DNA from: Macrostomum lignano
Lineage: Eukaryota
DNA: 57,665 bases
Reading direction: 5' to 3'
Assembly (NCBI GenBank): GCA_002269645.1
Contig: NIVC01004153.1
Location: 1-57,665, forward strand
Numbering within the stretch: position 1 is the stretch's first letter; the number at the start of each line of letters is the position of its first letter. The notes beneath the pieces were generated by a model. It ran no database searches and was not told the DNA's origin. It worked only from the letters and a program-made list of their open reading frames with translations. Position numbers and translations under genes: made by a program. This document shows positions 1-53,298 of this stretch, in pieces.

Positions 1-473
1 ATTTTTCATATAATTCAACCGCGGTTGATAATTCATGAATCGTTATCTCTCCGTCATCCAATATTTTTTGCACATATAAATATAACTGATTTTTATATTG
101 TTTTGCAACATCTCTTAAATGATTTATATTTTTCCTTTCTTTTTTTAAGATATAATTTAATTGCTAAAAGTATTGATAAGTTCCTGATCAATTCAAAACC
201 TGATATTGAGCCAATTGAAATACCTAAAAATAATTGAGATAAATTAAGAGTTGGAATAGATTGTAAAATACCTAAAACGATTACACATAACATTGATAAG
301 CTTCCAAATCCAATATTGAAAAAGTCCATATTTCTTATATGGTTTGAAACTCTTCTTACTTTTTTAGCATATAAATCATAATCATAGTTAATACGATCAA
401 CATTACTTAACATCTGACCTTTACGTTGGTTGAACCGGTCGCGTTCCCATTTATCTGCTTCAGATACCGACAT
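1..473 (-). CDS. Polinton membrane protein (GasderminX-like family); one extra base near 118, runs off the window edge
   Basis: ORF 93..473 has two hydrophobic helices then a Lys-rich stretch. Skipping one T near 118 continues as LRDVAKQYKNQLYLYVQKNMDDGEITIHELSTAVELYEK, which resembles the C-terminus of this Polinton family (from memory). Confidence 0.55.
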
Positions 474-479
474 TCTCGT

Positions 480-785
480 CTATTTTAATAGCACCAAAAT
501 GAATTCCCCGCGCTCTTTGGGGATTTGTCCCGAGCTCAATAGGTATTGTATTGGAGTGATTCTTTCTTTTTTCTCCCATTTAAATCCTATTTTCCAAAAC
601 TCTTGAAGTATAATATGATTTTTTAATAACTTAATTAATTCTTGAAGCTTCTTATTATCCTGAACATTTACAGTACTAAATAAAAATTTGGTATGAGATT
701 TGAATGTTTTTATATTTGATTCTTGTTTAGGAATAGGAATAATAACATTATTTTGCCGCATCGATGGAGTTCTACTAAAAGCCAT
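480..785 (-). CDS. Hypothetical viral protein, 101 aa
   Basis: Tightly packed ORF in the viral gene train; no recognisable motif. Confidence 0.5.
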   Translation of the reverse strand: MAFSRTPSMRQNNVIIPIPKQESNIKTFKSHTKFLFSTVNVQDNKKLQELIKLLKNHIILQEFWKIGFKWEKKERITPIQYLLSSGQIPKERGEFILVLLK

Positions 786-803
786 ATTTAATATATAAAT
801 ATT

Positions 804-2832
804 TTATATTTGAGTAGGAGGTTTTTCCAAATAAGCAGTAGAGGGAAAAACATAACCAAACGACGTACTACCACATACAACTGCACCACGAATAAAATGT
901 GCAGCATCCGCTCCACCAGTTCGAGCACCAAAACCCATAAGGGTTCCCTAAAGTTCCCCAAGTTCCACTATCATATGTGAAAACGTTCTGTCCAATGAGG
1001 GTAAAAGAATCACCAGCAACATTGTATGACTGTAATCGGTACCAAACCCTTTGATTTAAAATATTAACTTCAAATAAATGCCAATCGCCGTTATCAATAT
1101 TAGCATAGGCTACAGTTTGATCCGTCATATTAACATCGCGCGCTGATCCGTCTGATTTTTTATTACTCCAAACAACTCCAAACCTATCATGCCACTCACT
1201 TGCAAAACTATCAATCCGGCGTCGGTTGATAATCCAGTTCCAAATTCCGATGTTGGACGTTGGTGACAGTATGCATAAAACCAAACCGCATCTGCACCAT
1301 CTCCTGTAGCATTAGCAACTCGGAAAAAGAAAGACGCAGATATATTTTGAAAATGTGTGAAATTGAATTGTAAAGCCCACTTACACTGCGGTTTCACGAG
1401 TAATTCTAGCTCCATTTTGATAATCGATATAAGAAGCGTCACCAATTAAAGAACCGACTGGATATATATCTCCGGCGGTTGTTGGATTTTGATATCCAGA
1501 CCAATTGCAAATTACTGGTTCGAACAAGGCCGCATCAATAGCAGGTATTCCATCCAATTTATTTTTATCGCTTCCAGACATTCTACCATTTGATGTTGGA
1601 GTAGCTAGCTGATCTACGTACGCTCGCGGAACTGCAGAAAGTATTTGAGTTGGCCAATTAAGATCTTGAATTTCAACACGGTGTTCAAATAATTGTATTT
1701 GACGAACCTCGATAGGTTGTGTACCGGTACCACCAGTTGGGAAGAATACGCTATAATATTTCCAAAAATTAGTCGTTAAATTAGATAGAGCAAATGATGT
1801 TGCTTGAACTGGTGATCCCGACGTAGTTAATGTTGTCCATGAATCGGTAGCAACATTTTTTGCGCGAACCGACCACCCCGAGGGTATCTCAATTGTTTCA
1901 CTGCCTGTAATTCTTAATTCAAATATTCTTCTATTATAACCTAAAAATTCAAATTGAATTTCCATATTGGTTGTGGTTCCGGTATTTGGTGACCATTGTG
2001 TCGCAAGGCTTCCATCTCCAACTCGAAAAGCTGTGTTGCCATTTTCAGATGCTGTAAGAACAACATCAGGATTTGAAGTATTTGATGTAAGCGGCGTGGT
2101 AAAAATATCGGCGTCGGTTGCATTAGCTCGCTCATTTACTTGGCCTAGAGTTATCGAGTCTGCGTTATCTGTTCCAAATAATAAATTTGTTAATTTAAAA
2201 TTATTCATATTAATATTACCACTACGAGTGGCAACTTGATTATCGACATAGTTCTTATCAACCACTGAATCACTAGTTGTAATTGAAACATTTATAATTC
2301 GGTTGTTGCTCATATCTAGGTTTCCGGTTGCGGTGGTTTGAACATAACGTGAATCAGAATCAGTTCGAGAATAAGAATCAGTTACATCTCTTTTTAAATT
2401 TAATCCATTATCAACTTCGGTTTTGGTATAAGAATCGGCTACGTTCCGTTTCAAATTTAATGAATTATCAACTTCGGTTTTGGTATAAGAATCGGCTATG
2501 TTCCGTTTCAAATTTAATGAATTATCAACTTCGGTTTTGGTATAAGAATCGGCTGTATTGCGTTTTAAATTTAATGAATTATCAACTTCGGTTTTGGTAT
2601 AGGAATCGGCTACGTTCCGTTTCAGATTTAGTGAATCATCTATTTGAGTTTTGGTATAGGAATCTGCAACATTTCTTTTTAAATTTAGTTTAGTATCAAC
2701 TTCACTTTTTTTATAACCTTCATCTTCATTAATATATCGATTATCTCCAAATGTAACACTTATTCCACCAGATGTGCCACCACCGCCACTACTTGTTGTT
2801 CCGTTCCATGAGGGTGTTCCAGAAAATAACAT
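804..2832 (-). CDS. Fibre/receptor-binding-like protein (about 675 aa after correcting three 1-bp indels): 19-aa repeats, discoidin-like domain, C-terminal L-type lectin domain
   Basis: ORF 1381..2832 has (DSYTKTEVDNSLNLKRNVA)n, GNLDMSNNRIINV, DGSLATQW and ATPTSNGRMSGSDKNKLDGI. Frames 1125..1445 (GDGADAVWFY), 868..1284 (NIDNGDWHLFEV) and a final frame (YGFGARTGGADAAHFI...PPTQI*, stop 804-806) join into a ConA-like lectin. Confidence 0.7.
2371..2712 (-). repeat. Six 57-bp coding repeats (19 aa) in the fibre gene
   Basis: ATA(A/G)GAATC unit starts at 2371, 2428, 2485, 2542, 2599 and 2656. Confidence 0.9.
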
Positions 2833-2841
2833 TTTTACTGT

Positions 2842-3282
2842 CTATTTTATAGAGTCTAAAATAGTCTTAAATACTTCGGGGTTTACACGAGCTTCATTCG
2901 AAAGTCGATATAAAAAATACAACGCCGCTTGCCCGCAATAACTTTTATCAAAGGTTTGAAATTGTTCGTGATGATCTCCACATAAACGATTTTTAGTATG
3001 ATTAAATTTGTCTTTTATTTCCTGTAACGGAGGAAGCGCGTATGAATCAAAAAAATAAACAAGTTTTGGTTTTGAATAAACTGCTGACCAATGAACACCG
3101 TTTTCTTTTGTTGTTTCAATATTAACAATGAAAGATCCATATTGTGGTAAGTCTTTGATCTCATCTCGCATAACACATCTGAATGGTTTTATTTTTAACT
3201 GCCTCGCCCAATTTGTTAATTCGATATTGCTTGTTGTGTCCGTTCCATATCTTTGTTTAAAATCATCCCACGTCATGGTCAT
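2842..3282 (-). CDS. Adenain-like cysteine maturation protease
   Basis: NGVHWSAV (His), YFFDSY (Asp), Q..DKSYCG (Gln/Cys) in the Polinton/adenovirus order. Confidence 0.9.
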   Translation of the reverse strand: MTMTWDDFKQRYGTDTTSNIELTNWARQLKIKPFRCVMRDEIKDLPQYGSFIVNIETTKENGVHWSAVYSKPKLVYFFDSYALPPLQEIKDKFNHTKNRLCGDHHEQFQTFDKSYCGQAALYFLYRLSNEARVNPEVFKTILDSIK

Positions 3283-3283
3283 T

Positions 3284-3493
3284 TTATGTTCCTGAAAAAC
3301 TCTTGGTTTTAGTTAGTTTCGTAGGTGTGGGTTTTAACAATTCCTTTCTTATTTTATCAGCTTGTAACTGCCTTAATTTTGCTAGTTCTAGTTCGTAATT
3401 ATCTTCAGCTTTTTTAACTTTTTCTGATTGTTTTTTTAGTAAATTATTATTATTATCGTGCTTTGCACGCGAACATGTTGTTCGATTACCCAT
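3284..3493 (-). CDS. Small basic coiled-coil hypothetical viral protein
   Basis: 69-aa ORF with AAAAATG start context, abutting the protease start. Confidence 0.45.
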   Translation of the reverse strand: MGNRTTCSRAKHDNNNNLLKKQSEKVKKAEDNYELELAKLRQLQADKIRKELLKPTPTKLTKTKSFSGT

Positions 3494-3506
3494 TTTTACT
3501 ATACGA

Positions 3507-4292
3507 TTAAACCTGTTTTATACATAAAATTATTGTTATTGACTGCCCACCAAAACTTATTAATCTATCGCTTTCATCTACAATCCTAATATAAATTGAT
3601 TGAACATTATATTGATTTAATGGGTAATATATTGGGGTTTGAGGTGATACAATCATTTTCTCTCCAATTGGAACAGCAAGAAATGGGATTGAATAAATAA
3701 TTCCACGTTGAACCAAAACTCCATTATTATCTGTTATATAACCACCGTTTGAAATGTCGGTTGTTATATTAATTGTATTTACTCCACCCTCTATATTTCC
3801 AACTGTATCACCGGTGCTTGATGTGGTAACTATTCGGGAATTAAATCCAAGTATGGTTCTGAGTGAATTTGCAATTGTGAAATCAACCTGATATCCGGAT
3901 CCTAGTGATAGTGTGAATCTGCCAGACGGTAAATCAACACCTATAACAATTGCTCCTGCTACCCAATCACCATTAGTTGTTAATTCTCCTTCTATATAAG
4001 CATTCAAATCAGTATAGCTATACGCTCCTGGGTTAACGCTAAATGTTGTCCAATTGGCTCCGGAATCTTTAGAATATCTAAATTGATTATTTGTTGCATT
4101 AATTAATTGAGGCATGTTAAAAACCGAAAATAATATCAAACCAATTTGATAACTTAGGCTTTGATCAAGTTGTAATGGATCGCGCAATTGAATCCGTTGC
4201 TCGCTGGTTGTCATTATAAACTGTAATGTTGTACTAAATTTTGAATTAGTTCGATCTACCAATTGTTTTATAGTATCTAAATTTGTAGTCAT
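3507..4292 (-). CDS. Minor capsid protein (penton)
   Basis: PGAYSYTDLN, SLRTILGF, VNTINITTDI and SPQTPIYYPL...IYIRIVDESDRLISFGG are typical of Polinton pentons. Confidence 0.85.
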   Translation of the reverse strand: MTTNLDTIKQLVDRTNSKFSTTLQFIMTTSEQRIQLRDPLQLDQSLSYQIGLILFSVFNMPQLINATNNQFRYSKDSGANWTTFSVNPGAYSYTDLNAYIEGELTTNGDWVAGAIVIGVDLPSGRFTLSLGSGYQVDFTIANSLRTILGFNSRIVTTSSTGDTVGNIEGGVNTINITTDISNGGYITDNNGVLVQRGIIYSIPFLAVPIGEKMIVSPQTPIYYPLNQYNVQSIYIRIVDESDRLISFGGQSITIILCIKQV

Positions 4293-4310
4293 TTTTATAG
4301 TGGGAAATTA

Positions 4311-4373
4311 ATCGGACGAAGTCCGCGTTCCGAAGGAACGATCGTACCGAAGGTACGCGTGCTATGCACGATC
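4311..4373. other. Array of four GC-rich triloop hairpins
   Basis: cggac-gaa-gtccg, cgttcc-gaa-ggaacg, cgtacc-gaa-ggtacg and cgtgc-tat-gcacg back to back. Confidence 0.85.
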
Positions 4374-5162
4374 CTCTTCTTCCTCATTATCTTCTTTTAT
4401 CAAATTTGTTAAAATTCTATGTTTCCTTTCTAACCTCGGATTGATATAAATATGTTTGTATTGGCTATCATCCCAAATTTTTTTACACATACTTTTAAAT
4501 GGTTTTGCATCCAATCCGGGATTAAATCTAGCGTGAATATTTTGTAGATCATAGTTATCTAAATCAAACATTACACAACAGCTAGCATTCTTTTTTATAA
4601 TCGATTCTAATTCTCTAAAGGATTGAGTAAGATAAAAAGCTCCAATTCCATCTCCTCTACCACTAACAAAAATTTCCTTTTGCAATTCTTGATCACCGTC
4701 ATTAATACAATCATCAAAAATAATTAGTGTTTTATCATGTTTTGGAATTTGATCATAGGCTAATCGGGTTGATACTCTAACAGTTGGGGCTCGATCGGAC
4801 GAAGTCCGCGACCCTTCGGGGCGATCGGTGATGTTTTCTGGCTGTTGTGCCATTGTTTTACATAAATCCTCAATGTCTGCTAGATTAAATCGCGGTTCGT
4901 CATCATCCTCATATTGCTCATATGCTCTTAACATTCTAAACAAGACATCTTTTTTTAATTTGTTTTTTAATCCATGTTTAAGAAATTCATAATATTTTAT
5001 TCTAGGTTTATTAGTATAAATTATTAAATTATTATAGTCTAACATTCCATCTGTTGTTAATAAATCGTAAACAAAGTGTGTTTTTCCTTTACCTGATCCT
5101 CCGATTACTAAACAAAGAAAAGGATCATTTGGAAATATTTTATTGTGTTTTGCCTTTACCAT
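4362..5162 (-). CDS. A32/FtsK-like DNA packaging ATPase
   Basis: Walker A GGSGKGKT, Walker B LIIFDD, SGR...GAFYLTQS motif. Confidence 0.95.
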   Translation of the reverse strand: MVKAKHNKIFPNDPFLCLVIGGSGKGKTHFVYDLLTTDGMLDYNNLIIYTNKPRIKYYEFLKHGLKNKLKKDVLFRMLRAYEQYEDDDEPRFNLADIEDLCKTMAQQPENITDRPEGSRTSSDRAPTVRVSTRLAYDQIPKHDKTLIIFDDCINDGDQELQKEIFVSGRGDGIGAFYLTQSFRELESIIKKNASCCVMFDLDNYDLQNIHARFNPGLDAKPFKSMCKKIWDDSQYKHIYINPRLERKHRILTNLIKEDNEEEEDRA

Positions 5163-5192
5163 TTTTAAAGAAATAATTTAAATAGACGCGAC

Positions 5193-5236
5193 GGTCGGAG
5201 ACCTGCACCGCTTACAGCGGGCGACGTGCTTTGCAC
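5193..5236. other. Array of three GC-rich triloop hairpins between MCP and ATPase
   Basis: ggtc-gga-gacc, ccgct-tac-agcgg, gtgc-ttt-gcac. Confidence 0.75.
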
Positions 5237-5243
5237 TGCGACA

Positions 5244-6714
5244 CTAAAGTGGCGCGTCCCGAACAATCGTGCCATCAGCTTTAGCAATTGACATATATTC
5301 CTCTAGAAACAATACGTGGGCGTCAAGTGCCTGATTACCGGTTTTATTAATCTCTAACATATAATTAAGTCCAATATTGGCTACGTTTTCTTTCTGTGCC
5401 GTTAGATCATAAACAACCACTGGATGAATGTTTAGAAACTCTGTGGGTGTGTACTGAGGGACGGCATACGCTTCATTTTTAGCATAATCTTGATAATATT
5501 TTATAAAATCATTAACATTATTATTTGCTATATTTAAATTTAGGGTCTTTAACCGGATAATATTGATCATCAACCTGCAGGCGGATATTCTGAACATTAA
5601 ACTCGTTAATAGCTGCAGCCGCATTGTCTGTTGCGGTGGCTGCTTGTTCTGCTATGGCACCGGATTGAAGCCAATATAAATCCCCATTTGCTCTTTTACT
5701 CCTTCTATTTGTTATCTTAAACCAAACAAAAATATATCTCACCCGACGTTTTGATGTCAGTATTTGCCACTGGAATGAATCCTGGTTATTATTAATGGTT
5801 CGCATAAAATGTCGACGATTCAAATAAAATATTTCCTGATCATGCGTTAACTGATTATCGATGTGTTTTAAAAGTGGGGCTGTTACCTCAATAGTTGGTA
5901 CGACTAATTGAATTGAATCTATACGAACTGCTATATCGGTTGAAATTGAGGTTCCATAAAGTATCCTAGGCTGATATCCACCAGATATTTGCAACTGTAT
6001 CCCAAATTTTAATCCTTTCCATACCCGATTTGGTGAGAAAAACCCAAATAGTGGAAAGATTGAAAAGTCCTGCTCATATGCTGTTGCTGTGGTTAAAACC
6101 GCGACTGGGAATTTATTCTGACGATCTATAAAACCAGTATTAATATCTTTTGTATTAGTCATAGTGGTTACAACTGGAACTATGTTTGTATTAAGGTAAA
6201 CAATTAGCGCTGCAGTATCTGCACCGGCTGCGTTTTGTACATTAGGGAAAACTACTGCTTGCCCGTTACCTTTATCCGGCATCCACCCAACATTATCACC
6301 AACTTGTTTTGATAAATAAGTATAATTTAAATGTTTCAAAACTCCATTAATCTCTGCGGGGTTTGATGATGTCTCAACCTCAGCACCATTAACAGTTAGT
6401 TGAGCTTGGGAAAAACATTTATAAAACCAATCATTTTCTATTATTATTCCAAATCGATCTGCGATATCTCCGGCTGCAAGAGCAGTTCCATCATTTCTAG
6501 TATATAACCATCTAACACGGAAAAATGCATTTTTCATATCCAATATAGTGTTGGTTGCGCCGATGTCAAAAGTTACCGTTCCAGTAGTAAAGTTATTTGA
6601 ATTATCACTTGTTGGTAGGGTATAATTTAAATCTCTTGCTCTGACCTCATTAATATACTGTCGGTGCTTTTTGAAATGAAATTTATCACTCCACATAGTT
6701 TTTGTTTCAGCCAT
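5244..6714 (-). CDS. Double jelly-roll major capsid protein (about 489 aa; one extra A near 5550)
   Basis: VTFDIG..TILDMKNAFFRV and FSQAQLTVNGAEVE motifs. ORF 5521..6714 joins 5244..5624 as YYPVK/TLNLNIANNN if one base is removed. Confidence 0.85.
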
Positions 6715-6748
6715 TTTTTTAAGTTAAAAAAGTTTTTTATGTTAAAAA

Positions 6749-7420
6749 ATGAGTCAATTTATGGACGTTGATGGAGAGTTAGCGATTTATAAAGAGAAGC
6801 AAAGATATTCTGATTTTGTTAGAAATTTACAAAAAAGAAAGTTAGGAATACAATTAGCGGGTGAAAGATTTGCTGCTCCTTTTGTTAATCCTATTACTGG
6901 GAAAATTAGTGAACTAGAAAAAACAGATAAAGATCTTCTGGAAAAAATTGCTAAAAATACGGAGCCAAAAGAGGATGAAATTTTGGATGAGCCGCCTGCT
7001 TATGATGTTGATCAAGCTCAATTGAGAATTGCAGAGATTAGACGTGCAGAGCGGGGCGATCGGGAACAATATCCAAGAGTACCAGCTAGTATTGCTGCGA
7101 CAGATTTAGGTAATAATAATTATCGAATTGGTGGAGTTGATAAAAATCGAAATGAACTATATAGAGAATTGGGTGGAGCATTTAATATTATTACGAACCC
7201 TAGGGTAAAATTTAACCCTGATTTATATACTAGAGATGAATTAGTAAGTGCTAAAATTTTTTACGATGAGTTAGGAGGTGGGGGTGTTAAAAATACCAGC
7301 TTGTATAAAAGGATTGTTAATTCTATAAATAACAAACCGGCTGTTGGAGAAGGATTTAAAACTCCTAGAAAACTTGTTTTAGCTGCCGCGAAAGCTGCTG
7401 GACATACAGGAATTAATTAA
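6749..7420 (+). CDS. Hypothetical Polinton protein, 223 aa
   Basis: Long ORF divergent from MCP with AAAAAATG start; N-terminal coiled coil ending FAAPFVNPIT. Confidence 0.6.
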   Translation: MSQFMDVDGELAIYKEKQRYSDFVRNLQKRKLGIQLAGERFAAPFVNPITGKISELEKTDKDLLEKIAKNTEPKEDEILDEPPAYDVDQAQLRIAEIRRAERGDREQYPRVPASIAATDLGNNNYRIGGVDKNRNELYRELGGAFNIITNPRVKFNPDLYTRDELVSAKIFYDELGGGGVKNTSLYKRIVNSINNKPAVGEGFKTPRKLVLAAAKAAGHTGIN

Positions 7421-7443
7421 TTGTTAAATTTATTTTTTATAAA

Positions 7444-8013
7444 ATGGAAACTAATAAGATTTGTACTAAGTGTAAACAAGAAAAACCGATGACGAAAGAA
7501 TTTTATTTTTGGAGAAATGATTCAAAAAAATTTAGAAATGATTGTCGATCTTGTCATAATACCTCATCTGCTATTTGGATAAAAAACAATAAAGCTAAAT
7601 GGAATGAATATAGAAAAAATAAGTATCACACTGATGATAATTACAAACATATTGTTTTAATTAGAAATAGAATAAATTGGGCGTTGAAAAATTTTAATGA
7701 CAAGGACTATATCTCATATCTTGGTTGCACAAAAGAATTCTTTTTTGATTGGTTAAATTTCACAAGAAATTATTATGTATCAAAAGATTATACTGGAAAG
7801 TTAGATATTGATCATTTCATCCCCGCTTCTTCATTTAGTTACAAAGATGATGATCAGATGATAAGGTCTGAAAATTGGAGAAATAAAAGATACTTAACTA
7901 GCGTAGATAATCGCTATAAAAAAGTTCAACAACCAACCATTGAAGAGTTTGCAAAACAATTGGCGCTATCATGTATTTTTATGGCTATTAAAAATGACCC
8001 AAATAGTATTTGA
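7444..8013 (+). CDS. HNH-type (homing) endonuclease with N-terminal C4 zinc finger
   Basis: CTKC...CRSC; YLGCTKEFF; LDIDHFIPASSF...ENWRNKRYLTSVDNRYK resembles giant-virus/phage HNH nucleases. Confidence 0.75.
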   Translation: METNKICTKCKQEKPMTKEFYFWRNDSKKFRNDCRSCHNTSSAIWIKNNKAKWNEYRKNKYHTDDNYKHIVLIRNRINWALKNFNDKDYISYLGCTKEFFFDWLNFTRNYYVSKDYTGKLDIDHFIPASSFSYKDDDQMIRSENWRNKRYLTSVDNRYKKVQQPTIEEFAKQLALSCIFMAIKNDPNSI

Positions 8014-9570
8014 AGGAGGATTTTTAGACTTACAAAAAGGATTAACAAGCTTACCACCAATCTTTACTACTGGTAAATATACAGGGGAACTACACCTACC
8101 ATCAATGAACTTCACAGGTTAACCCGTGGCCTGAGTGAGGAAGGCAATGTCCTTGCTAGTCACTATTTGTGGCGACATCTCCAAATTGCGTGAAACCCGT
8201 CATACAGCTTCAAGTACCACTTCAATTGAGAAATCTTTTGAAGGAACAGAGGTAACTCCTCTTCCCAAAGGTAACAAGCTTGAAGACACGGTGGCAATGC
8301 GCAGCCAAGCTCCTAAGTATTTTAAATATAAGGAGAAGGTTCAGAGAGCAGACGGAGATGGGCGGTAATTTAACCGCTTAAGGTGTGCTCCAGCCTCTTT
8401 TGAAAGATTGAGGGTAAACTACCCGGCACTCGCTTAGATTTGAGATTAAATCCTGATGACACCCCAAAATCTGATTCAATTCCAATAAATGGGATTGATT
8501 GGTTAGCATACTATCACGACTTAGCATATAGAGATGCTGACAAGAACCCGCCCGAGGAAGCATTAAGATTAAAACATGAAGCCGATCAAAAAATGATTCA
8601 AGGATTAGATAACTTGCAGGGATTATCGGTAGGTCAAAAATTAACTAGGTGGATGGTTAAAAAGATCTTGCAGTCTAAAGTTAAATTTGGTTTAGGAATT
8701 AATTACAACCAACATGGTAATAATTGTGTCGAATGTTTGTTATTAAGTGGTAGTGGGCTAAGTTATGATAAGGCTAAGGTTCTTCATAAAGAATATCGAA
8801 AACCTAAATTTTATAGAAAAATCATGAACTTCAAAAAGAATGAAATTTGGTATGCTGATTTAATGTCTATGCCGATCGATAAAGGATATAAATATATTTT
8901 AACCATATTAGATGGTTTTACTCGATACGCGTGGGCAATTCCTTTAAAATCCAAAAAAGGAGAGGAGGTTGCTGCTGCTTTTAGAAGCCTTGATGAAAAA
9001 AGCAACCGGTTGTGTGTTGATGAAGGAAAAGAATTTTACAATCCTCATATGTATAAATTGTATCATTTTGAAAAAGGAAAAGAAAGGATGAAGGACGCGA
9101 ATGGGGAGTATATTAATAAAATTTATTCTATTTATGGAGAGAGTAAAAACGCATTAATAGAAAGATTTAATCGAACTTTAGGTAAGAAATTGTGGTTTCA
9201 GTTTAGTCTTAATGGTTACCAAAAGTGGGTAAAAATATTACCAGACGTTGTAAAAGATTATAACAATTCATATCATTCGGCCATAAAGATGGCTCCTCAA
9301 CAAGCTTATAACAAACCTGATAATGTTAAGGTTACTTTTGGAGATTTTGAAAAAAAGAAAACTAAAGGTTTTAAGGTTGGTGATTCTGTTTATATCTATA
9401 AATGGAAAGATAAGTTTGAAAAAGGAAGAAAAGGATATTGGAAGATAAGTGAGAAATTTACTATCAGTAAAGTTTTAAATACCAATCCTACAACCTATAT
9501 AATTGCTGATAAGGACGGTGAAGAAATATTGGGTTCTTTTTATGAGAATCAGATATTATCTGCAAACTAA
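7994..9570 (+). CDS. PLA2X-integrase fusion, join(7994..8119,8422..9570), 424 aa, interrupted by a group I intron
   Basis: Exon 1 ends ELHLPSMNFTG; exon 2 starts PGTRLDLRLNPDDTPK...PINGIDWLAYYHDLAY (parvovirus-type PLA2 motif). rve core follows: WYAD, CVDEGKEF, IERFNRT, YNNSYHS, FKVGDSV. Confidence 0.9.
8120..8421 (+). ncRNA. Group I self-splicing intron, subgroup IC1 (P5abc present), terminal nucleotide A
   Basis: P1 caggU8119/G8129ccug; P3 8176-8182/8354-8360 (7 bp perfect); P4 8187-8191/8299-8303; P5abc with A-rich bulge and GAAA loop; P7 8346-8350/8386-8390; P8; P9 with GAAA loop; P9.0; P10. P/Q/R/S-like motifs AAATTGCG, AATGCGCAGC, GTTCAGAGAGCA, AAGGTGTGCTCC. Confidence 0.93.
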
Positions 9571-9580
9571 GTTCGATCAG

Positions 9581-9805
9581 TTACTTAAGACAACATGGTA
9601 GTAAATTTTTTATAACAAACAAAAACAATATTATTACAATAATTGTTACTAATATTATTATTGACATTTGTTCAACAGTGATTAGACTTAAATTTTCATT
9701 AAATTCATTAATTGGAACATTTCCGATATAGGAATAGTTTACCTTCATTTTTTTATATATATTTTTCACAATAAATGTCGTTTCTGTTATAGAATAATAG
9801 TTCAT
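9581..9805 (-). CDS. Small viral membrane protein
   Basis: 74 aa with a C-terminal hydrophobic helix; AAAAAATG start. Confidence 0.45.
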   Translation of the reverse strand: MNYYSITETTFIVKNIYKKMKVNYSYIGNVPINEFNENLSLITVEQMSIIILVTIIVIILFLFVIKNLLPCCLK

Positions 9806-9821
9806 TTTTTAAATATTTTTT

Positions 9822-10136
9822 TCACATAAAAATTTCACTTTCATTCTCTGAATCACTGGTTTCATATGAACTATTTGTTGATTCGGAATCTGTTGATCTA
9901 ACCTCCCAATCATCCGAATTTAAATAATCTCCAAGTTGAAATATTAACTCACCCTCTTGTTCTAAATCATACATCTCATCCAACTCTAATGGATAAAGTT
10001 TTAGGTCATGCTTGTCGTCATACTTTAAATAAACTTCATCAATTATTCCATTCAAAATATGTTGTTTTATTATCTCTGCATTTTTAGCAACAGTCTCAAA
10101 AGTATCACTAACAGAAAAGGTGTAAACTCGGGTCAT
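9822..10136 (-). CDS. Acidic hypothetical viral protein
   Basis: 104 aa with a Ser/Glu-rich tail; AAAAATG start. Confidence 0.5.
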   Translation of the reverse strand: MTRVYTFSVSDTFETVAKNAEIIKQHILNGIIDEVYLKYDDKHDLKLYPLELDEMYDLEQEGELIFQLGDYLNSDDWEVRSTDSESTNSSYETSDSENESEIFM

Positions 10137-10187
10137 TTTTAGTAACAGAAAAAGACCCTTCGCGCCTGCGGCGCGGGCAAGGGGTTA

Positions 10188-10464
10188 TAGAGTAGTAGTA
10201 TAGAAAAAGACGCTTCTAGATCAGACCTTATTTTAATGACCGTTTTTATGGTCTTAAGAGGGGGGACGCGAGGGGAGTGTTGGGGAGTGTTTGGAAGTGT
10301 TGGGAAGTGATTTTTATTGTCAGGGGTGATTATGGGTGATTAGATGTGTTAAGGGTGTTTAGATGTGTTTTTTTATTTACCCCCCGTGTCCCCCCTCTAG
10401 ACCCTTAAAACGGTCATTAAAAAAGTGCTCTGGGTCTAGAAGCGTCTTTTTCTATACTACTCTA
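10188..10464. repeat. Imperfect 277-bp palindrome at the viral terminus
   Basis: tagagtagtagtatagaaaaagacgcttctaga at 10188 versus tctagaagcgtctttttctatactactcta ending 10464; inner arms ttttaatgaccgtttt / aaaacggtcattaaaa. Confidence 0.8.
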
Positions 10465-18731: not shown

Positions 18732-21700
18732 GTCTCAAAGTTGCCGACATCAACAAGGCCGCAGGGCTTCGCTTGCATCGGCGAGGCGGCGAAGCCCCAG
18801 CGAAAGCCGGTCAACAGCAGCCGGCTGCTCTGTCCAAGCCCGGCGCTGCCGCCGCGGCCTCCAAAAATAAAAACAAAGAGAATGCCGCCTCTGCTAAGCC
18901 AGGCAATAATAGCAAAGCTGTCAGACTGCCGGCTGTCAAGGCTAAGCCTGCTGTTGTTGATGTGCCACCAGCTGCTGCGGCAGTTCCGGCGACTGGCAAT
19001 GCTGCGGACAGGTGCACCGAATCGCTGAAGAAGAAGTACTCTGAGGTTTGTTTGAGGTAGTGTCCGACTCTTGCGTTAGGACTCAGGAGCCGTGGTTCGA
19101 TTCCCTGCGCTGCCACAATCATTTGAGGCTTGTCGTGCATGCTTGGGCGCAACCTTGGGATTCACCCCACCGATTCTATTGACAACACACTATTGGTAGT
19201 CACGTGACTGCTCTCAGCCAATAGCGACTTACATCATCATGTGTGTGTTGCCAATCGAAACGGCCGTGTGAATCCCAAGGTTGCGCATTTTTGTAATGTC
19301 GTGTGATTCAAAACCATGAGGATCAACTCCTAAGGCACAGAAAGTGTACATGCTGCTGTACACCCTGTGAGAGCGTGTGCATGAGTGCGTGCCTGTGTAC
19401 AGCGCTTGCATGTGCTCAGGAGCCAGTGGAATGGGCAGCAGTGCCATCAGCACTGGTTGTGACCTGTCTTATTTATCGGCTAGTTTATTTCAGTTATCTT
19501 ATATCAGCATCGGCAACTGAGGTTTCTCATAAATCTCATACATCTCGTAGGTCGGCGACGTGGACAATGAGTCCGAGGATTGCAGAGACTGCCTGCTGGT
19601 GTCAGCCTATGTCAAGGACATCTTCACCTACCTGCAGCAGCTGGAGATCAGCGCCGCGGCTGTGAGGCCGGATTTCCTTCAGAGCCCAAGCCGGCTGCAG
19701 ATCACGCCTAGGATGCGGACCATCCTGTGCGACTGGCTGGTGCAGGTGCGGCTCTGCTCTGCTGTCATTGTGTGCTCTGCTCTGCTGTCATTGTGTGCTC
19801 TGCTCTGCTGTCCACTCTATTCCACTCTGCTGTCCACCCTATTCCACTCTGCTGTCCACTCTATTCCACTCTGCTGTCCACTCTGCTGTCCACTCTGCTG
19901 TCCACTCTGCTGTCCACCCTATTCCACTCTGCTGTCCACTCTGCTGTCCACCCTATTCCACTCTGCTGTCCACCCTATTCCACTCTGCTGTCCACTCTGC
20001 TGTCCACCCTATTCCACTCTGCTGTCCACTCTGCTGTCCACCCTATTCCACTCTGCTGTCCACCCTATTCCACTCTGCTGTCCACTCTGCTGTCCACCCT
20101 ATTCCACTCTGCTGTCCACCCTATTCCACTCTGCTGTCCACTCTGCTGTCCACCCTATTCCACTCTGCTGTCCACTCTGCTGTCCACCCTATTCCACTCT
20201 GCTGTCCACCCTATTCCACTCTGCTGTCCACTCTGCTGTCCACCCTATTCCACTCTCCTGTCCACTCTGCTGTCCACTGTATTCCACTCTGCTGTCCACT
20301 CTATTCCACTGCTAGTTCTAGCCGGCAATGCCGCTCCGCATTTTCAGGTCCACCAGCGCTTCACCCTGCTGCCGGAGAGCCTGTACCTCACCTATCACAT
20401 CATTGACGCCTTCATGTCCTCGGATGCCGGGGCCAGCGTGAAGAAAAGCGAATTCCAGCTGATCGGCGTGTCTGCCATGCTTCTGGCCAGCAAGTACGAA
20501 GAGATCTACCCGCCTAACGTTGCCGACTTTGTGTACATCACTGATCAGGCTTTCACTGGTAATTGCTTTTTTATTAACTTCCTCAATGACTGGGAAAAAT
20601 CGCGAGAAGATTTAAATAAAAAATAGTATTTTTAGCAGAGCGTGGTTTCGATCCACGGACCTCTGGGTTATGGGCCCAGCACGCTTCCACTGCGCCACTC
20701 TGCTCTGGCATTTCCTAGCCTGAGATCTGAGTATTTGTGCCTGCAGTGTGGACTGTGCTATATATCAATATTTACCGAATCAAAATGATGAAATATTAAC
20801 GGCTGGAAACAGTTGCTCTTGTCAAGCATAGTTCGTCTACTGTGAGTAGACTATATGATATTTTTGCTGACTAATTTTTTCTACGCGGCGAAAAAAGCCT
20901 GCCTTTGTCTCTAAAATCTTTCGGGCCTTTTACCAGAGACCTGCTCTAGAACCCCTGCTTCCTGTACAAGTTGTCATTCTGTGCTGGAACAAGCCCTTCT
21001 TGTACAAGTCATCATTTTGTACTGGAATTCCTGCTTCCTGTACAAGTCATCATTCTGTACTGGGACCCCTGCTTCCTGTACAAGTCATCATTCTGTACTG
21101 GAACCCCTGCTTCCTGTACAAGTCATCATTCTGTACTGGAACCCCTGCTTCCTGTACAAGTCATCATTCTGTACTGGAACCCCTGCTTCCTGTACAAGTC
21201 ATCATTCTGTACTGGAACCCTTGCTTCCTGTACAAGTCATTCTGTACGTGAACAACCCTTGTTTCCTGTAGAAGTCATTCTGTACTGGAACAACCCTTGT
21301 TTCCTGTACAAGTCACCTTCCTGTACTAAAACCACTCTTTTGTACAAGAAATCCAGTATTCTGTAAAAGTACAAGTCAGTTTGTCCTGTACTAGACCCAA
21401 CCCTTTTCTGTACATGTGCAATAGTCTAGTGCTAGTATCCTGTATTAGAAGCACACTCCTTGTACAAGCGTCGCCGTCAGCTCTACAATGCCCCCCTTCT
21501 CACTCTAATCACTCAGCCGCCGAGATCCGGGCCACCGAGCAGCGCCTGCTGAAGCAACTGAACTTCTTCCTGGGCTATCCGCTGCCCATTCACTTCCTGC
21601 GCCGATACAGCAAGGTGGCCGCGGCCACTCCAGCCGTACACGAGGCCGCCAAGTACCTGGCCGAGTTGGCTAGGGCTGACTACTCGGCCGCTCACCTGCC

Positions 21701-23478: not shown

Positions 23479-25657
23479 ATGTCCTCTGCGGAGCCGGGCT
23501 CTGCTAGCGGGCTGCATTTGGCAACTGTGCCGTCTGCCGCCTGGCCGATAGTCTACCGGCCGGAGTACGACATCGACTTTGGCGGCCTGGAGAAGGTGCA
23601 CCCGTTCGATGCCCGCAAGTGGGGCCGCATAGCTCGATTCCTGCTGGACGACGGGCTGCTGGCTGCTGAGGATCTGGTCGAACCGCTGGAGGCTGAGGCT
23701 GCCGACCTGCTGCGGGTGCACACCAGAGAGTACTTGGACTCGCTCAATGTGAGCTGCTGGATTCAGGACCTGCTTGATGAGATTCAGGACCTGCTTGATG
23801 AGATTCAGGACCTGCTTGATGAGATTCAGGACCTGCTTGATGAGATTCAGGACCTGCTTGATGAGATTCAGGACCTGCTTGATGAGATTCAGGACCTGCT
23901 TGATGAGATTCAGGACCTGCTTGATGAGATTCAGGACCAGCTTGATGAGATTCAGGACCAGCTTGATGAGATTCAGGACCTGCTTGATAAGATTCAGGAC
24001 CAGCTTGATGAGATTCAGGACCTGCTTGATGAGATTCAGGACCTGCTTGATGAGATTCAGGACCTGCTTGATGAGATTCAGGACCAGCTTGATGAGATTC
24101 AGGACCTGCTTGATGAGATTCAGGACCAGCTTGATGAGATTCAGGACCTGCTTGATGAGATTCAGGACCAGCTTGATGAGATTCAGGACCTGCTTGATGA
24201 GATTCAGGACCTGCTTGATGAGATTCAGGACCTGCTTGATGAGATTCAGGACCAGCTTGATGAGATTCAGGACCTGCTTGATGAGATTCAGGACTTGCTT
24301 GATGAGATTCAGGACCAGCTATGAGATTTAGGAGTTTGCTTATGTGATTCAGGACCGTCTTGATAAAATTCAGGACCAGCTTGATGAGATTCAGGACCAG
24401 CTTGATGAGATTCAGACATTTAGTTTGAGGGTGCCATGGAAAAGCGAATTCTGGCTTGAAGATGAGATGCAATAATTTTTTATACATGGATAATATTGCT
24501 TAGGAGCATACATTACTAACAGTAGTTAATTTGCATTTATCGGTGCCCAGGACAGCCGCGTGGTGGCGCAGGTAGCCGAGGTGCCTCTAGTGGCCGCTCT
24601 GCCCAACTCGCTGGTACAGGAGAAACTGCTCAAACCGTTTCGCTACCAGACTGGTGGCACCGTACTGGTGAGTCATGCTGGTGCTGGAAAATTTTCACAG
24701 TTAATATCTGATAGTTTAAGCTCTGGGCCAGCAGAAATGAAGATTTATTCAAGTTAGAAAATGCTTAAACTGGTGAATCTTTATTTTTAATAGAGGAGAA
24801 TTGAGCAAAAAAGTATTTAGCAGAGCGTGGTTTCGATCCACGGACCTCTGGGTTATGGGCCCAGCACGCTTCCACTGCGCCACTCTGCTCTGGCATTTCC
24901 GAGCCTGAGATCTGCGCATTTCTGCCTTGTATCCAAGCCAAAATCCTGTCAGTTTGTTTTATATTTGCCCTTTTAACATGATGAAATATCAACATGCCTA
25001 GAAGAATTTTCTTGTCAGGCAGTTTTCGTCTACTGTTAGTAGGTATTGCAAGAATATTGTTGGTAAAATTTGAAAAATCTAGTAGATATTGAAACAAAAA
25101 TAATGACGAAATTTCGAAAGCCAGCAGTCCAGTTGTGCTTCTTTAGAAGTCCTTGCTGACGCAACGATGCCGCCCCGCCCGCAGGCTGCCAAGCTCGCCC
25201 TGGATCGCGGCTGGGCCATCAATCTGGGCGGCGGGTTTCATCACTGCTGCTCGGAGCGCGGCGGCGGCTTCTGCGCCTACGCCGACATCAGCCTGGCCGT
25301 GCGGCTGCTGGACGCCCCTCGACGGGTCATGATTGTCGATCTGGACGCCCATCAAGGCAACGGCTACGCCAGAGATCTGGGTGCCGATTCCAATGTGTAC
25401 ATCCTGGATGTTTACAATGCCGATATTTATCCTGGCGATCAGGAGGCTGCAGGTTGGCTGCTGCTGGGGCTTTGGGAAGTTGAATAGTAGGAGAAGGCTG
25501 GTTGGAGAGAGGGAGATAGGAAAGGCGAGAGAGGGAGATAGGAGAGGCAAGAGAGGCGAGAGAGAGGGAGATAATAAAAGGAGAGAAGGAGATAGGAGAA
25601 AGGAGAGGGAGATAGGAGAAAGGAGAGGGAGATAGGAGAGTCGAGAAAGGGAGATAG

Positions 25658-47882: not shown

Positions 47883-49952
47883 ATGGCCGATGCCGGCGAC
47901 AATGTACGCGTGGTGGTGCGCTGTCGCCCCATCAATCAGAAGGAGAAGGACGCCGGCAACAAGGTGATTGTGAAAGTTGATGAGCTGCGCGGCTCCATCG
48001 AGATCACCAATCCGGCCGGGCCGCCTAGTGAGCCACCGAAAACATTCACTTTTGACATCGTTTTCGGCATGACCTGCAAACAGGTGGACATTTATAACAA
48101 AGTGGCCAGGCCCATTGTTGATTGTGTTATTGAAGGCTACAATGGCACGATATTCGCGTATGGCCAGACCGGAACGGGCAAGACTTTCACGATGGAAGGC
48201 GTCAGGACCGTACCTGAGCTCCGTGGCATCATCCCGAACTCGTTTGCTCACATCTTCGGCGCCATCAGCAAGGCGACAGCCAATGTGACCTTTCTTGTGC
48301 GGGTCTCGTATCTAGAGATCTACAACGAGGAGGTGCGCGACCTGCTGGGCAAGGATCAGACAGCCAGACTAGAAGTGAAAGAGCGGCCCGATGTGGGAGT
48401 GTACGTGAAGGATCTGTGCAGCTTTGTGTGTCACAATCCGGACGAAATGGACAAGCTGATGACCGTCGGAAACAAGAATCGTGTTGTAGGAGCCACGAAC
48501 ATGAACGAGCATAGCTCACGTTCTCATGCAATTTACACTGTGACGGTGGAATGTTCCGAAAAAGCAGTGACTGGTAAAACGATGCTCCGACAAGGCAAGC
48601 TGCATCTTGTAGACTTGGCTGGCAGCGAGCGTCAGGCAAAGACCGGAGCCACTGGTGTGAGGCTGAAGGAAGCCACAAAGATCAACTTGTCGCTGAGTAC
48701 TCTTGGCAACGTGATTTCTGCACTTGTCGATGGAAAGAGTACCCACATTCCATACCGCAACAGCAAGCTCACTCGACTTCTTCAGGACTCACTTGGAGGC
48801 AACAGCAAGACCGTAATGTGCGCCAACTTTGGTCCAGCTGACTACAACTTTGATGAAACAATCAGTACTTTGAGATACGCAAATCGGGCGAAGAACATCA
48901 AGAACAATGCTAAGATCAATGAGGATCCTAAAGATGCAATGCTGAGACAGTTCCAGAAAGAGATTGAGGATCTGAAGAAGCAGTTGGAGGATGGTGGCGG
49001 CATTCCAGAGGGAGACGAAGATGATGAAGATGACGAGGATGATGAGGACGTCGTTGTTGGCGAAGACGGGCAAGAACGTCGAGTTCGCAAGCGGCGCGCC
49101 CTTAAAAGCCTTTCTAAAGACCAGATGCAGGAAATCGAGCAGCGCATTGCCGCAGATCGCCGTCGATTAGAAAAAGATCAAAACATGGCTGAAGAGGAGC
49201 GCGACCGCGTTCGCCAGCAGCTGGAATCGCAGGAGCGCGAGCTCACGCGTCACCGTCAAGAGCAGCGGGCACTTGAACAGAAGCTGTCGGACCTGGAGAA
49301 GCGTCTTATCGTTGGTGGCGAGAACCTGTTGGAGAAGGCGACTGAACAGGAGCGGCTTCTTGAACAGAATGCAAAAGAGTTGGAGGCTAGGCGCCGGGAG
49401 GAAGAGCGACTTCGAACGCAGTTAAAAGAGAAGGAGCAAGCAAAGGTCGAGATTGAAGATCGCTACCGCAGTCTGGACGAAGAAGCCACTGCTAAGACGC
49501 GGAAGCTAAAGCGTCTTTGGCAGGTGTACATGGAAGCAAAGTCTGAGCTAGCCGACGTGCAAGAAGAGCACCAGCGCGAGATGGAAGGCTTGCTAGAAAA
49601 CGTGCGACAACTGAGCAGAGATCTGCGCCTGCAGATGCTCGCTATTGACCAATGCATCCCGCGCGAATATCAGGAACTCATCGAGAGCAACGTTGTATAC
49701 AATGATGCCATCGGCGAGTGGCAACTCAAGGGTGTGGCCTACTCAGGCAATAACATGCGCAAGCGAGCCGCTGAAGCGGAGGAGAAAGAGAAGAAAGAGT
49801 TGGAGGAGAAGTTTGCGGAGCCGCCGCTGGAGACGGTGTACTTGCGCTATAGTGAGCGGCTGGACAGTGCCGTGTTCAAGCCAAGCGCTCGGTCCGCCAA
49901 AGGCAAAAAGTCGGCTAAAAGTGGCGGTAGGAAAAAGAAATCTGCTGCATAA
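47883..49952 (+). CDS. KIF3A: Kinesin-2 motor subunit, KIF3A/KRP85-like, intronless, 689 aa
   Basis: [23 protein letters not shown], acidic hinge, [20 protein letters not shown]. Confidence 0.92.
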
Positions 49953-50965
49953 AATTGTGGCCTTTTCTGCATGTTGAGTAACAGTTAATTTGCTGTTTTG
50001 GACATCAACAAGTCTTTATTTGTCTATCGTTCTATTGACAAGAGTTTCCTAACAATCTCAGTTTCTAATGAAGCAATTGTTTTTTAAAGAAAAAAGTATC
50101 CCAGGTAAATTTATCAGTAATCAATGTTTCTTTAGGTCACTACTTAGTAATCTTGTTACTCTAGTCACTGTTTTACCTGTTTTATTATGTATGCAGTGTC
50201 ATGCCTGTTTCTGACTGCTTTTGTTCTCTAGGCAATTACTTGAGCTCTACTGCCTTTCTCAATGTCGGTTTGCGTCTTTTATGTCACAGATTCGTTCTAT
50301 TTTTTATATTCAACTTAGTATGGTTATACAGACGTGCAATTTTTGGTTTTTCTCACAAATCTTATGATGTTTATAATATTATCTCTAATCATTGCAATAT
50401 TTGACTTTAGTATATTTTCACAGTTACCCTAAATATCTCTTCAGTAGTCTCTGAGAATCTCTGACAACTTTAATTGCCTAGCACCTGTTTTCTTATGTCT
50501 TATTGTTTTTATTTAAATATATATACTGTAGGCTAAAAAATGATCCCTAAAGTCACAACGTCTTTATTTATTTTAAATGTATGTGTACAATACTACTTCG
50601 AACTTTAGCTAATGCTACAGCTTTACTTTAAATTTGTTTAACTTTTTTACTTTCAGTGTTCAAATTGTAATACGCACATATACTTAAGTATGTCACTAGC
50701 TACTACGCACGTATTTTAAGTCATGGGTCAAAAGCTAACAATTTTCTTAACTCTTTGCTTTAGCCTTAGACTGTCTAGAGACGAGTCCAATTGATGCTCC
50801 GTGAAAGTAGTTCTAGAATAGTTGTTCATTAGAAACCCTGAGCTAGGGTTTCCGAGACTTCAGTTTTTCTACGAAACCATAATATTAGCGTTTGGAATAA
50901 GTAGGTTGATCTCGTTAACCTTAATTATTTTTTAAAATTTCCTTTACTTCTGCAAGAAGCTTCCA

Positions 50966-52398
50966 ATGTCGGAAGAAGAAAATAATTTTATTGTGGCGGT
51001 GAGGTGCCGGCCACTCAGTCAAAAAGAGATCACCGAAGGCAACAAGGTGACTGTGAAAATTGACGAGCTCAGAGGAACAGTTGAAATCACGGAGCCAAAT
51101 GTTGTTCGCCAAGAAGGAATGGCCAGTCACGCGGGAGAGCCTAAGACATTTACATTCGATCACGTGTTCGGCATGCAGAGCAAGCAGGTGGACATTTATA
51201 ACAAAGTGGCCAGACGAATTGTCGATTTCGTTTTGGAAGGCTACAATGGCACGATATTCGCGTATGGCCAGACCGGAACGGGCAAGACTTTCACGATGGA
51301 AGGTGTCAGGACCGTACCTGAGCTTCGTGGCATCATCCCGAACTCGTTTGCTCACATCTTCGGCGCCATCAGCAAGGCGACGGCGAATGTGACCTTTCTT
51401 GTGCGAGTCTCGTATCTGGAGATCTACAACGAGGAGGTGCGCGACCTGCTGGGCAAGGATCAGACAGCCAAACTAGAAGTGAAAGAGCGGCCCGATGTGG
51501 GAGTGTACGTGAAGGATCTGTGCAGCTTTGTGTGTCCAGTCCGGACGAAATTAACCAACTTTTAATCGATGGCGCAAGGAATCGAATGTTTCATGCGACA
51601 CGCATGGGCAGGCTAAGCTCTAGATCCAACAGGGTGTTAACAGTAACAATCGAGTGTTTAGAGCAAGGCCAAAATGGTAAAATAGTGGTGCGTCAAGGCA
51701 AACTGCATCTTGTAGTTTTTGCTGGTAGCGAGCGTCAGTCAAACGCTGGAGTCACTGGCGTGCGGCTGAAGGAGGCCTCTAAGATAGGCATGTCTATGAG
51801 TCCTTTTGGCAAAGTGATATCAGCACTCGTTGATGGGAAAAGTGTCCACATCCCTTACCGCGACAGCAAGCTCACTCGTATACTTAAGGATTCACTAGGT
51901 GGTAACAGCAAGACATTAATGTGCGCCAACTTCAGTCCAGCTGACTGTAACTATAAGGAGACTATAAGTACGTTAAGATTGGCCTGTAGAGCAAAGAGAG
52001 TCACTAATAGTGCCAAGATTAACGAGGATCCAAAAGACGCGATGCTGAGGCAGTTCCAAAAGGAGATTGAACAGTTAAAAAGTCAACTGGAGTGTTGCGA
52101 CAGAATTTCAGGCACGAACTGCGATGTTACAGACGCTGCTGCTACGAGTAAAGAAGACAGACACGGGCGTTCTGTTTGTAAGCAGCATGCGTTTAAGAGC
52201 CTCTCTAATGAGCAGATGCTGGAAATTGAGCGTCACTTCGCTGGCCGTCTCCGACCAGAACACGATCCAAACATACCTGAACGGGAGCTTGACCAGTTTC
52301 ACCATCAGTTGGTTTGGAGAAGCTCAGACTGTCTCCATTGGAGATTGTGTGCCATTCCAGCTGCAATCAGCCAGGCAGTGCTGTTTTTAAATCCGTGA
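50966..52398 (+). pseudogene. Chimeric, frameshifted and truncated KIF3A-like copy
   Basis: 5' part nearly identical to the copy at 53299; one A missing near 51537; 3' part divergent with MGRLSSRSN and VFAGSE; stalk and tail absent. Confidence 0.75.
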
Positions 52399-53298
52399 TT
52401 CAGTTGTATTTATCCTGGGTAAAATCGCGGCGGTTTCGATATAGAAATACTGATCAACGCACTAGCGTTTTGTTTTGATAGGTTATTTTCTCTTTATTGT
52501 AGTTCGTTTTGTGTCTGTTTTTTAAAAATTACATCATTGGAAAATTGTTCACTCGATTTGTAAACTAATATACTTTTGAGGAAGCTTCGTATCTCCAACT
52601 CACTCTGGTATTCTCTGTTTTTCTCTGCCACGATACTTTACATGTATAAGTACGATTGTTTACAAATCTTACGCTACTGTGTTCAACTTTGGATTTAAAG
52701 CCAGCAAAATAACCATTTTAATACCTATTTTGCTTTTGAGATTATCGCAATTAAGCGATACATGTAGAATTACTTGGCTATACTTTCTAGCTTTCAGGCA
52801 ATTAAGTACTATGCTATTTGTACTGATTGGCCTTCAGAACATCACAAGGATTTGAAACTGCGCCTTAAGAAGTGCTTGAAAACTTTACTGATTCCGTATT
52901 TGATTGTTCCGAAATGTGCTTTCTGCTTTTTATCCAGCCTATCTAGTGAGGCCTAATCGAACTATCTCATATTTTTAATGCATTTGTGAACTTTGAAGAT
53001 GACAAACTCTTTTACAACAGATACTTTTTAATATTACTAGTATACAATTCATGAGTTTATATTGTAGTAAGAAAATTTACTTGCAAAAAAATTCAAATCA
53101 ATAAGTTAATAATCTTCTCTATGTATAATTTTCGATTTCCGTTTGGCTAAATTTGTAAACAATGTAAAAATAGGTCATTCTGTGTATTAGGCTATTAGCA
53201 TTAGAACTTTCAAACAATTTGCATTTAGAGTTTCTCCTAAACAACTATTAAAGTAGCAGCCATATTTTACTATAAGAACGCCTTTTCTCTTTCATGCA

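Follow-up and report, generated by a model that had tools for sequence, protein, structure and literature searches.

The locus described here raises the question of how a group I intron comes to lie in the integrase gene of a Polinton in a bilaterian genome, and why it is kept there at one particular pair of codons. The DNA analyzed (the window, 57,665 nucleotides) is one entire contig of the Macrostomum lignano genome assembly (764 Mb, 5269 contigs).

The interval between the two exons of the integrase gene is confirmed, from its sequence, as a real and complete group I intron of the IC1 type (Table 1). The sequence-only reading of the window, which had proposed this intron, had named a covariance-model search and a search for intron-plus and intron-minus alleles as checks, and the proposal held in both: Rfam model RF00028 matched positions 8110-8412 with 62.7 bits (E 1.8e-15; gathering cut-off 50), and five natural intron-less alleles (L063, L064, L065, L196 and L197) are uninterrupted across the insertion site and read through it with no gap, which fixes the intron boundaries at 8119/8120 and 8421/8422. 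The coordinates and reading frame that had been given are correct, with exon 1 running into a TAA stop at 8120-8122 and exon 2 comprising 8422-9570; removal of the intron yields the predicted PLA2-integrase of 424 amino acids (42 codons plus 382 amino acids). A constant C before the site in the intron-less alleles was considered and discarded, as it holds for three of the five only.

The helices described in that reading were for the most part found to pair as described, i.e. P1 (with U8119.G8129), P2.1, P3 (7/7 bp), P4 and P5; P5a (bulge 8273-8278), P5b, P5c, P6 and P6a; and P7 (bulged A8345, G8346-C8390), P8, P9.0 and P9. The exception is P10, which is weak, with pairing in just four of the first six exon-2 bases by inspection. 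A P2 helix (8134-8141/8150-8157) that had not been described is present in addition, P9.1 and P9.2 are absent, and the intron contains no notable internal ORF. The IC1 subgroup is characterized by P5abc with an A-rich bulge, a GAAA L5b loop, and P2 together with P2.1; all of these occur here, in agreement with the subgroup assigned earlier. The L5b receptor is UAAGG in the window intron and UAUGG in the sibling copies L035, L199 and L203. Free-energy folding of the window intron was not significant (z -1.83), which is expected because the group I core is pseudoknotted. A scan of the whole window at the Rfam gathering threshold recovered two tRNAs only and not the intron; because of this miss, and that of the L071 intron (below) in multi-locus scans, negative Rfam scans carry little weight in this analysis.

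Covariation was evaluated in 26 natural sequences, which are related to each other and represent two Polinton families (family 1, with the window element, and family 2, with an integrase about 57% identical) and one metagenomic contig. Both sides of a pair were changed in 94 of 2288 pair-cells, including three adjacent P7 pairs, compared with 80 one-sided changes, 86 broken pairs (some of those in P8 and P5c are misalignments) and 24 gaps. The both-sided changes were found in P3, P4, P5a, P5b and P7, that is, in the P3-P7 pseudoknot and the P4-P6 core, and three P7 pairs are changed on both sides between the window intron and family 2; 26/26 sequences have the P1 U.G pair at the 5' splice site. 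In the 30 best-scoring genomic copies, P1, P2.1, P4, P6, P7 and P8 are unbroken throughout, and outside P9.0 pairs are broken in three copies at most (most positions, counted singly).

Table 1. Features of the window and their positions, counted from its first nucleotide
Feature	Position	Strand	Basis or remark
Group I intron, IC1-type	8120..8421	+	RF00028 match, helices; boundaries via intron-less alleles
P7 guanosine-binding core	8344..8391	+	8344-8350 with 8386-8391; encloses 3' strand of P3, and P8
P5abc extension, A-rich bulge and GAAA loop	8207..8285	+	helix pairing
Exon 1, PLA2-integrase	7994..8119	+	42 codons, ATG at 7994, ends in Gly codon; 8115-8119 in P1
Exon 2, PLA2-integrase	8422..9570	+	382 aa, starts at Pro codon; rest of PLA2-like domain and retroviral-type integrase core
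HNH/endonuclease VII-type gene, free-standing	7444..8013	+	in a variable nuclease slot; just upstream of integrase start, which it overlaps
Right-hand part of Polinton	1..10463	.	contig start cuts element
A32-like ATPase	4362-5162		Pox_A32 above cut-off
Protease-like ORF	2842-3282		within Polinton part
Probable (putative) capsid ORFs	3507-4292, 5521-6714		within Polinton part
Terminal inverted repeat, 27 bp	10194/10435		single element end; contig begins inside element
Host kinesin KIF3A	47883..49952	+	same contig; used to place host

The conserved calcium loop of the PLA2-like domain is interrupted by the intron at the junction of its Gly and Pro codons. Exon 2 gave two Pfam matches below cut-off, to rve (E 4.6e-7) and to Phospholip_A2_4 (E 0.013), and its homologues carry PF00665 and PF08398. 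Among 25 copies the pN/pS ratio of the exons is 0.09-0.14 (exon 1, 0.10); the exons are under purifying selection, which may predate the arrival of the intron. By its gene content, comprising the integrase, the packaging ATPase and, in a sibling copy (L209), a protein-primed DNA polymerase (DNA_pol_B_2), the window element can be assigned to the Polinton/Maverick (adintovirus-like) class. No Pfam or PHROG match was obtained for the probable capsid and protease-like ORFs; for the capsid there is a weak match to an ORF of L071, and the single-sequence fold prediction reached a pLDDT of 29. A further element ORF (1381-2832; 483 amino acids with about six 18-residue repeats) possibly encodes a fibre protein.

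Exon 2 has 133 family-1 matches in the genome, and for 131 of these a partner exon 1 was identified (fragments were left out of this pairing, as were most family-2 rows); the gap between the exons is absent in three copies, about 303 nucleotides in 76, 324-338 nucleotides in 50 and larger in two, and an intron-sized insert is present in 126 of the 131. About 108 genomic copies carry the 3' end of the window intron. Its last base (8421) is an A instead of the canonical terminal G, a feature absent from the sequence-only reading. According to pattern searches, 84 of 108 copies end in A and 24 in G; the G-ending pattern gave 26 matches, two of which, with mid-pattern differences and outside integrase loci, were dropped, and a reversed control pattern gave five matches. 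All 25 resolved introns of family 2 (28 introns in all) end in G, as does the L071 intron. Two other in-frame G's, at 8406 and 8412, were considered as 3' ends and judged unlikely; both fall within P9.

The terminal A, in 84/108 copies and with the G-binding pair of P7 unaltered, could impair the second splicing step, and makes the splicing of the window intron a genuine question. The A-ending lineage, the window copy included, might on one reading be a splicing-poor or dead intron that spread by homing or with help in trans; the integrase would then derive from the G-ending copies, from an in-frame ATG at 8593, which could yield the integrase core without splicing, or from spliceosomal splicing between GT 8118 and AG 8437, which is in frame and loses part of the calcium loop. 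The terminal A itself, the frame arithmetic and the existence of the 24 G-ending copies would suit this reading. So would two contigs that are unspliced across the 3' junction, both from runs whose RNA status is a guess. They come from a junction look-up in contigs of four runs, three of them taken by guess as RNA and one as DNA, in which the 8119/8422 junction was not seen among 15 of the 70 joints listed. No run recorded as RNA was among those containing the stretch 7444-9570. However, the A-ending copies are the majority, occur in varied exon backgrounds and have kept all helices; the AG at 8437 is missing in some alleles, e.g. L198 and L204; and terminal-A introns can splice, as documented in the accessible part of PMC8146996 for the mitochondrial ND5-717 intron of a sea anemone. 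The hexacoral ND5-717 intron resembles the present one in its terminal A and animal host, but is mitochondrial, obligatory and located in an unrelated gene (PMC8146996, same part). We regard a splicing-poor lineage as unlikely; in our judgement the intron family as a whole very probably splices in vivo, and its A-ending copies probably do so as well.

Family 2 accounts for all of the 28 top-scoring RF00028 matches in the genome (72-91 bits), and its introns interrupt the same codon boundary. These introns are 836-895 nucleotides long and carry an ORF that is inserted at P2.1 and reads on into the core. The ORF matches Pfam RE_Eco47II (PF09553; 30.1 bits, cut-off 25.9), and the structures nearest to its model (pLDDT 92) are EcoO109I (DNA-bound), then Ecl18kI and AvaII; on profile and predicted fold, it is an Eco47II-like PD-(D/E)xK type II restriction nuclease. 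A free-standing Eco47II-like nuclease, 64-66% identical to the family-2 ORF, precedes the integrase gene in 36 of the paired family-1 copies, each with an intron; its association with the intron within family 1 is not significant (0/3 intron-less copies against 36/128 others). In the window copy the intron encloses no nuclease, and the gene upstream of the integrase matched PHROG endonuclease VII (E 2.8e-8) and HNH (E 2.6e-5), with HNH as the Atlas lead (0.89); the same slot is occupied by an Eco47II-like gene in L059 and by a GIY-YIG gene in L071. No methyltransferase was detected among the element ORFs scanned. In the accessible text of the respective sources, EcoO109I recognizes RGGNCCY (PMC3299994), and an Eco47II homologue is tied to GGNCC 'without certainty' (PMC10305163). 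Judged by nuclease family and genome composition, the Eco47II-like nuclease likely cuts GGNCC. Distant relatives of the nuclease (29-38%) were also found on the IMG/VR contigs L181-L190, four of which are labelled GVMAG; GGNCC is low in several of them (8 vs 23.9 in L181-L189; 16 vs 53.6 in L190).

A second, different group I core occupies the insertion site in 24 genomic copies (including L059-L062; RF00028 41.6-42.9 bits). The 5' site and P5abc are those of the window intron, the guide sequence of the core covaries with the exon, and its J6/7 is GCA, by which we take it to be IE-like; both in-frame candidates for its 3' site alter the Gly-Pro-Gly motif. Weaker copies of this core (L191-L193) gave no Rfam match, and L191 looks decayed. 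Mosaic intron copies with exchangeable peripheral hairpins point to recombination between intron families. Outside the genome, the IMG/VR contig L071 (adintovirus-like, 36% integrase identity) carries a group I intron at the same site (2700-3000; 52 bits), with the GIY-YIG gene free-standing just upstream; this is the intron that was missed in a multi-locus Rfam scan and found when the contig was scanned alone. Integrase scans of IMG/VR (30 loci) and of JGI metagenomes (best 80 of 393) returned distant relatives, with an intron only in L071; a joint Rfam scan of 10 such metagenomic loci gave no match at E 0.05, and five IMG/VR loci with the 17-base P5a motif, likewise without an Rfam match, were taken as chance. 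When inspected by eye, 7/120 homologous integrases from outside the genome start exactly at the motif Pro, 11/17 outside nuclease homologues end in intron-core read-through, and in the cluster member P0130 an intron core is read in frame upstream of the integrase. Polintons as distant as 57%, 46% and 36% in integrase identity have an intron at the site, with at least two core types among them; together with the ties to nucleases and GGNCC avoidance, this makes the single acquisition from a protist that had been envisaged too simple a picture. Individual copies vary in their periphery: a 30-nucleotide insert in P5abc was seen in L194, L195, L204 and L035, an insert in P5 in L203, and a P2 in common with the second core in L201 and L203.

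Gly-Pro codons (GGN CCN) always contain GGNCC, and the intron splits those of the calcium loop, hence a GGNCC. All five intron-less alleles carry GGNCC exactly at the insertion site. The remainder of the element (1-10463) contains none against 10.5 expected, the lowest count of 256 spaced words, compared with 124 against 139 expected in the host flank, and a non-overlapping 6.6 kb of another copy (L209) contains none against 6.2 expected; a third-order null lowers these expectations to 5.9 and 5.0, respectively. For 13,050 ORF bases, the count is 0, whereas codon shuffling (1000 runs) gave 14.1 on average and never fewer than 3. GGNCC is absent from 30 family-1 loci and reduced in 28 family-2 loci (14 vs 130; loci not independent) and in L071 (0 vs 3.0 expected in 7 kb), whereas it is retained in 120 external loci of distant integrase and nuclease relatives (433 vs 609). 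Gly-Pro is absent from the element proteins (0 vs 5.5 expected in 2720 amino acids), and occurs 32 times against 83 expected across 120 homologous integrases, for a minority of which the nuclease content is known. CCNGG is also under-represented (4 vs 15.7 in 1-10463; 2 vs 7.2 in L209), with one of the four sites of the window element at 8423, just past the intron; this shortage may mark a second nuclease. The compositional case for a putative nuclease-and-shield system is strong. In seven of the 120 homologous integrases (P0012, P0016, P0023, P0025, P0066, P0081 and P0113) the calcium-loop Pro is replaced (GAQ, GAN, GVG, GKN), possibly as a second way to lose GGNCC.

Our preferred reading, to which we give a probability of roughly 0.6, is that of a mobile group I intron native to an animal Polinton clade, spread by nuclease-driven homing and shielding a GGNCC site that cannot be recoded. 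The Eco47II-like nuclease would cut GGNCC, as its restriction-enzyme relatives do, and selection would have purged GGNCC from the remainder of the element and so made the element immune. Because Gly-Pro can be coded by GGN CCN only, the intron would be a way to keep the motif yet lose the DNA site. Intron-less rivals would be cut at this site and then repaired from an intron-plus copy (homing) or outcompeted; the RNA would fold into the IC1 core and remove itself from the host-made transcript, giving the full PLA2-integrase, and the window lineage would splice with its terminal A, possibly aided by host proteins. Counting against the shield is the CCNGG shortage, which an Eco47II-like nuclease does not explain. 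More tentative, at slightly below even odds, is the wider proposal that animal Polintons operate a methylase-free restriction system, in which the GGNCC nuclease would attack rivals or host DNA, the site-less element would be immune, and the self-splicing intron would hide the one forced Gly-Pro site.

With regard to homing, 25 A-ending copies diverge by 0.008 in the intron and by 0.11-0.17 at synonymous sites of the exons, and unpaired intron positions are polymorphic in 5/121 cases against 70/371; the low divergence fits a recent spread, and could also result from RNA constraint or from the choice of loci, since the 30 loci compared are best BLAST matches, which favours similarity. An apparent co-conversion tract in the flanking exon did not survive the statistical test (1/20 vs 70/371; p 0.14, not significant).

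An ordinary selfish homing intron would equally spread in this manner: the Eco47II-like nuclease would be a long-site homing enzyme, or the HNH nuclease would do the homing, GGNCC would have been lost to some other pressure, such as an enzyme of the host or of a helper virus, and the intron would protect nothing. The three nuclease types in the upstream slot, the additional depletion of CCNGG, and the shortage of Gly-Pro over the 120 homologous integrases (nuclease content known for a minority) are all in line with such an intron; it is nevertheless rated as distinctly unlikely, as the sole fully absent word matches the recorded specificity of the nearest relatives of the nuclease and coincides with the insertion site, and as the external loci retain GGNCC.

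The sequence-only reading had placed the Polinton in a bilaterian nuclear genome, and KIF3A on the same contig bears this out: its best named matches are in molluscs, nemerteans and annelids (lophotrochozoan; 51-58%), and all named matches among the 120 listed are bilaterian. Another reading is that a misassembly placed elements of a protist, symbiont or food alga among the contigs of the animal. It might be said for it that the PLV group I introns published in the accessible text of PMC12220804 are all from protists; this reading is very improbable, given more than 130 Polinton loci in the genome, some on contigs of 0.7-1.2 Mb, the bilaterian genes on the same contig, the presence of the stretch 7444-9570 in 20 of 24 runs listed (8 studies, all labelled with one organism), and contigs that pass the element end at 10461 into differing flanks.

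The intron shares with nuclear IC1 introns (Tetrahymena LSU type, RF00028) the P1-P9 core, P2/P2.1, P5abc with its A-rich bulge and GAAA loop, the U.G splice site and the G-binding pair in P7. Closest in setting are the introns of protist PLVs, which are RF00028 introns of about 300-380 nucleotides in integrated Polinton-class elements; in the accessible text of PMC12220804 they are 'restricted' to few protist groups and recorded only in Rhodomonas (in a short gene preceding that of the capsid), Paulinella and Desmodesmus. The present introns differ from these, for which that text reports no nuclease link, in their animal host, in the PLA2-integrase gene, and in having nuclease-bearing variants. 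Homing-endonuclease introns, such as those of collaborative homing and phage phiPA3, are similar in their insertion at a conserved coding motif, in a nuclease that is intronic or free-standing, and in a possible use against rivals; the phiPA3 intron nuclease serves phage competition, according to the accessible part of 10.1101/2023.09.30.560319. In contrast to those systems, the nuclease here belongs to a short-site restriction family (Eco47II/EcoO109I-like) and not to the LAGLIDADG, GIY-YIG, HNH or His-Cys families, and the whole element avoids the site. A PD-(D/E)xK homing enzyme with a long recognition site is known in I-Ssp6803I. Chloroviruses likewise combine, in a eukaryotic DNA virus, restriction-type nucleases with self-splicing (group IB) introns in protein genes, but protect themselves by an adjacent methyltransferase (PMC7019647, accessible part), whereas protection here would apparently be by site avoidance and the intron.

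By sequence, a group I intron family is present in the Polintons of a bilaterian genome. The sequence-only reading knew of no such report, and for animal Polintons this claim stands: group I introns in animal Polintons or in animal nuclear protein genes were not found in the literature covered, outside which most subscription papers lie. It does not extend to Polinton-class introns, known from the protist PLVs (PMC12220804, accessible text), or to group I introns in animals, given putative ones in shark rDNA spacers (accessible parts of PMC8393795, PMC10964413 and PMC11782384, the last also with a beetle rDNA record). The adintovirus PLA2X gene is described, with group I introns unmentioned, in the accessible text of PMC8502044, and the name fits loosely, as the domain here is fused to the integrase; such introns are mentioned in passing only in the accessible parts of PMC11296320 and 10.1101/2023.08.22.554363. 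New here would be the same-site intron with an Eco47II-like nuclease in the sister family, the free-standing nuclease in the 36 family-1 copies, and the loss of GGNCC.

According to the accessible text of a review (PMC10964413), metazoan group I introns are absent except in non-bilaterians and five sharks, and nuclear ones occur in rRNA genes only; more than 100 well-kept copies in a protein gene of a bilaterian genome break both statements. If the preferred reading is true, a protein-coding transcript would undergo natural group I splicing in the nucleus of a bilaterian, in this case with a terminal A; naturally occurring G-ending and A-ending variants are available for comparison. The nuclease, intronic in one family and free-standing in the other, would offer a snapshot of the formation of a mobile intron. 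In the GGNCC pattern there is a concrete and testable reason for keeping an intron at a single codon pair, and the pattern points to warfare among animal Polintons.

The window contains, at 47883-55377, a tandem array of three KIF3A-like kinesin copies that lack introns; the middle copy (50936-52398) is frameshifted. Two identical tRNA genes with a CAT anticodon (20633-20704 and 24818-24889), presumably initiator-like, were also predicted, the first beside a cyclin-like exon. Between 19500 and 44000, the host genes (cyclin B-like, histone deacetylase and others) are broken up by many long tandem-repeat arrays.
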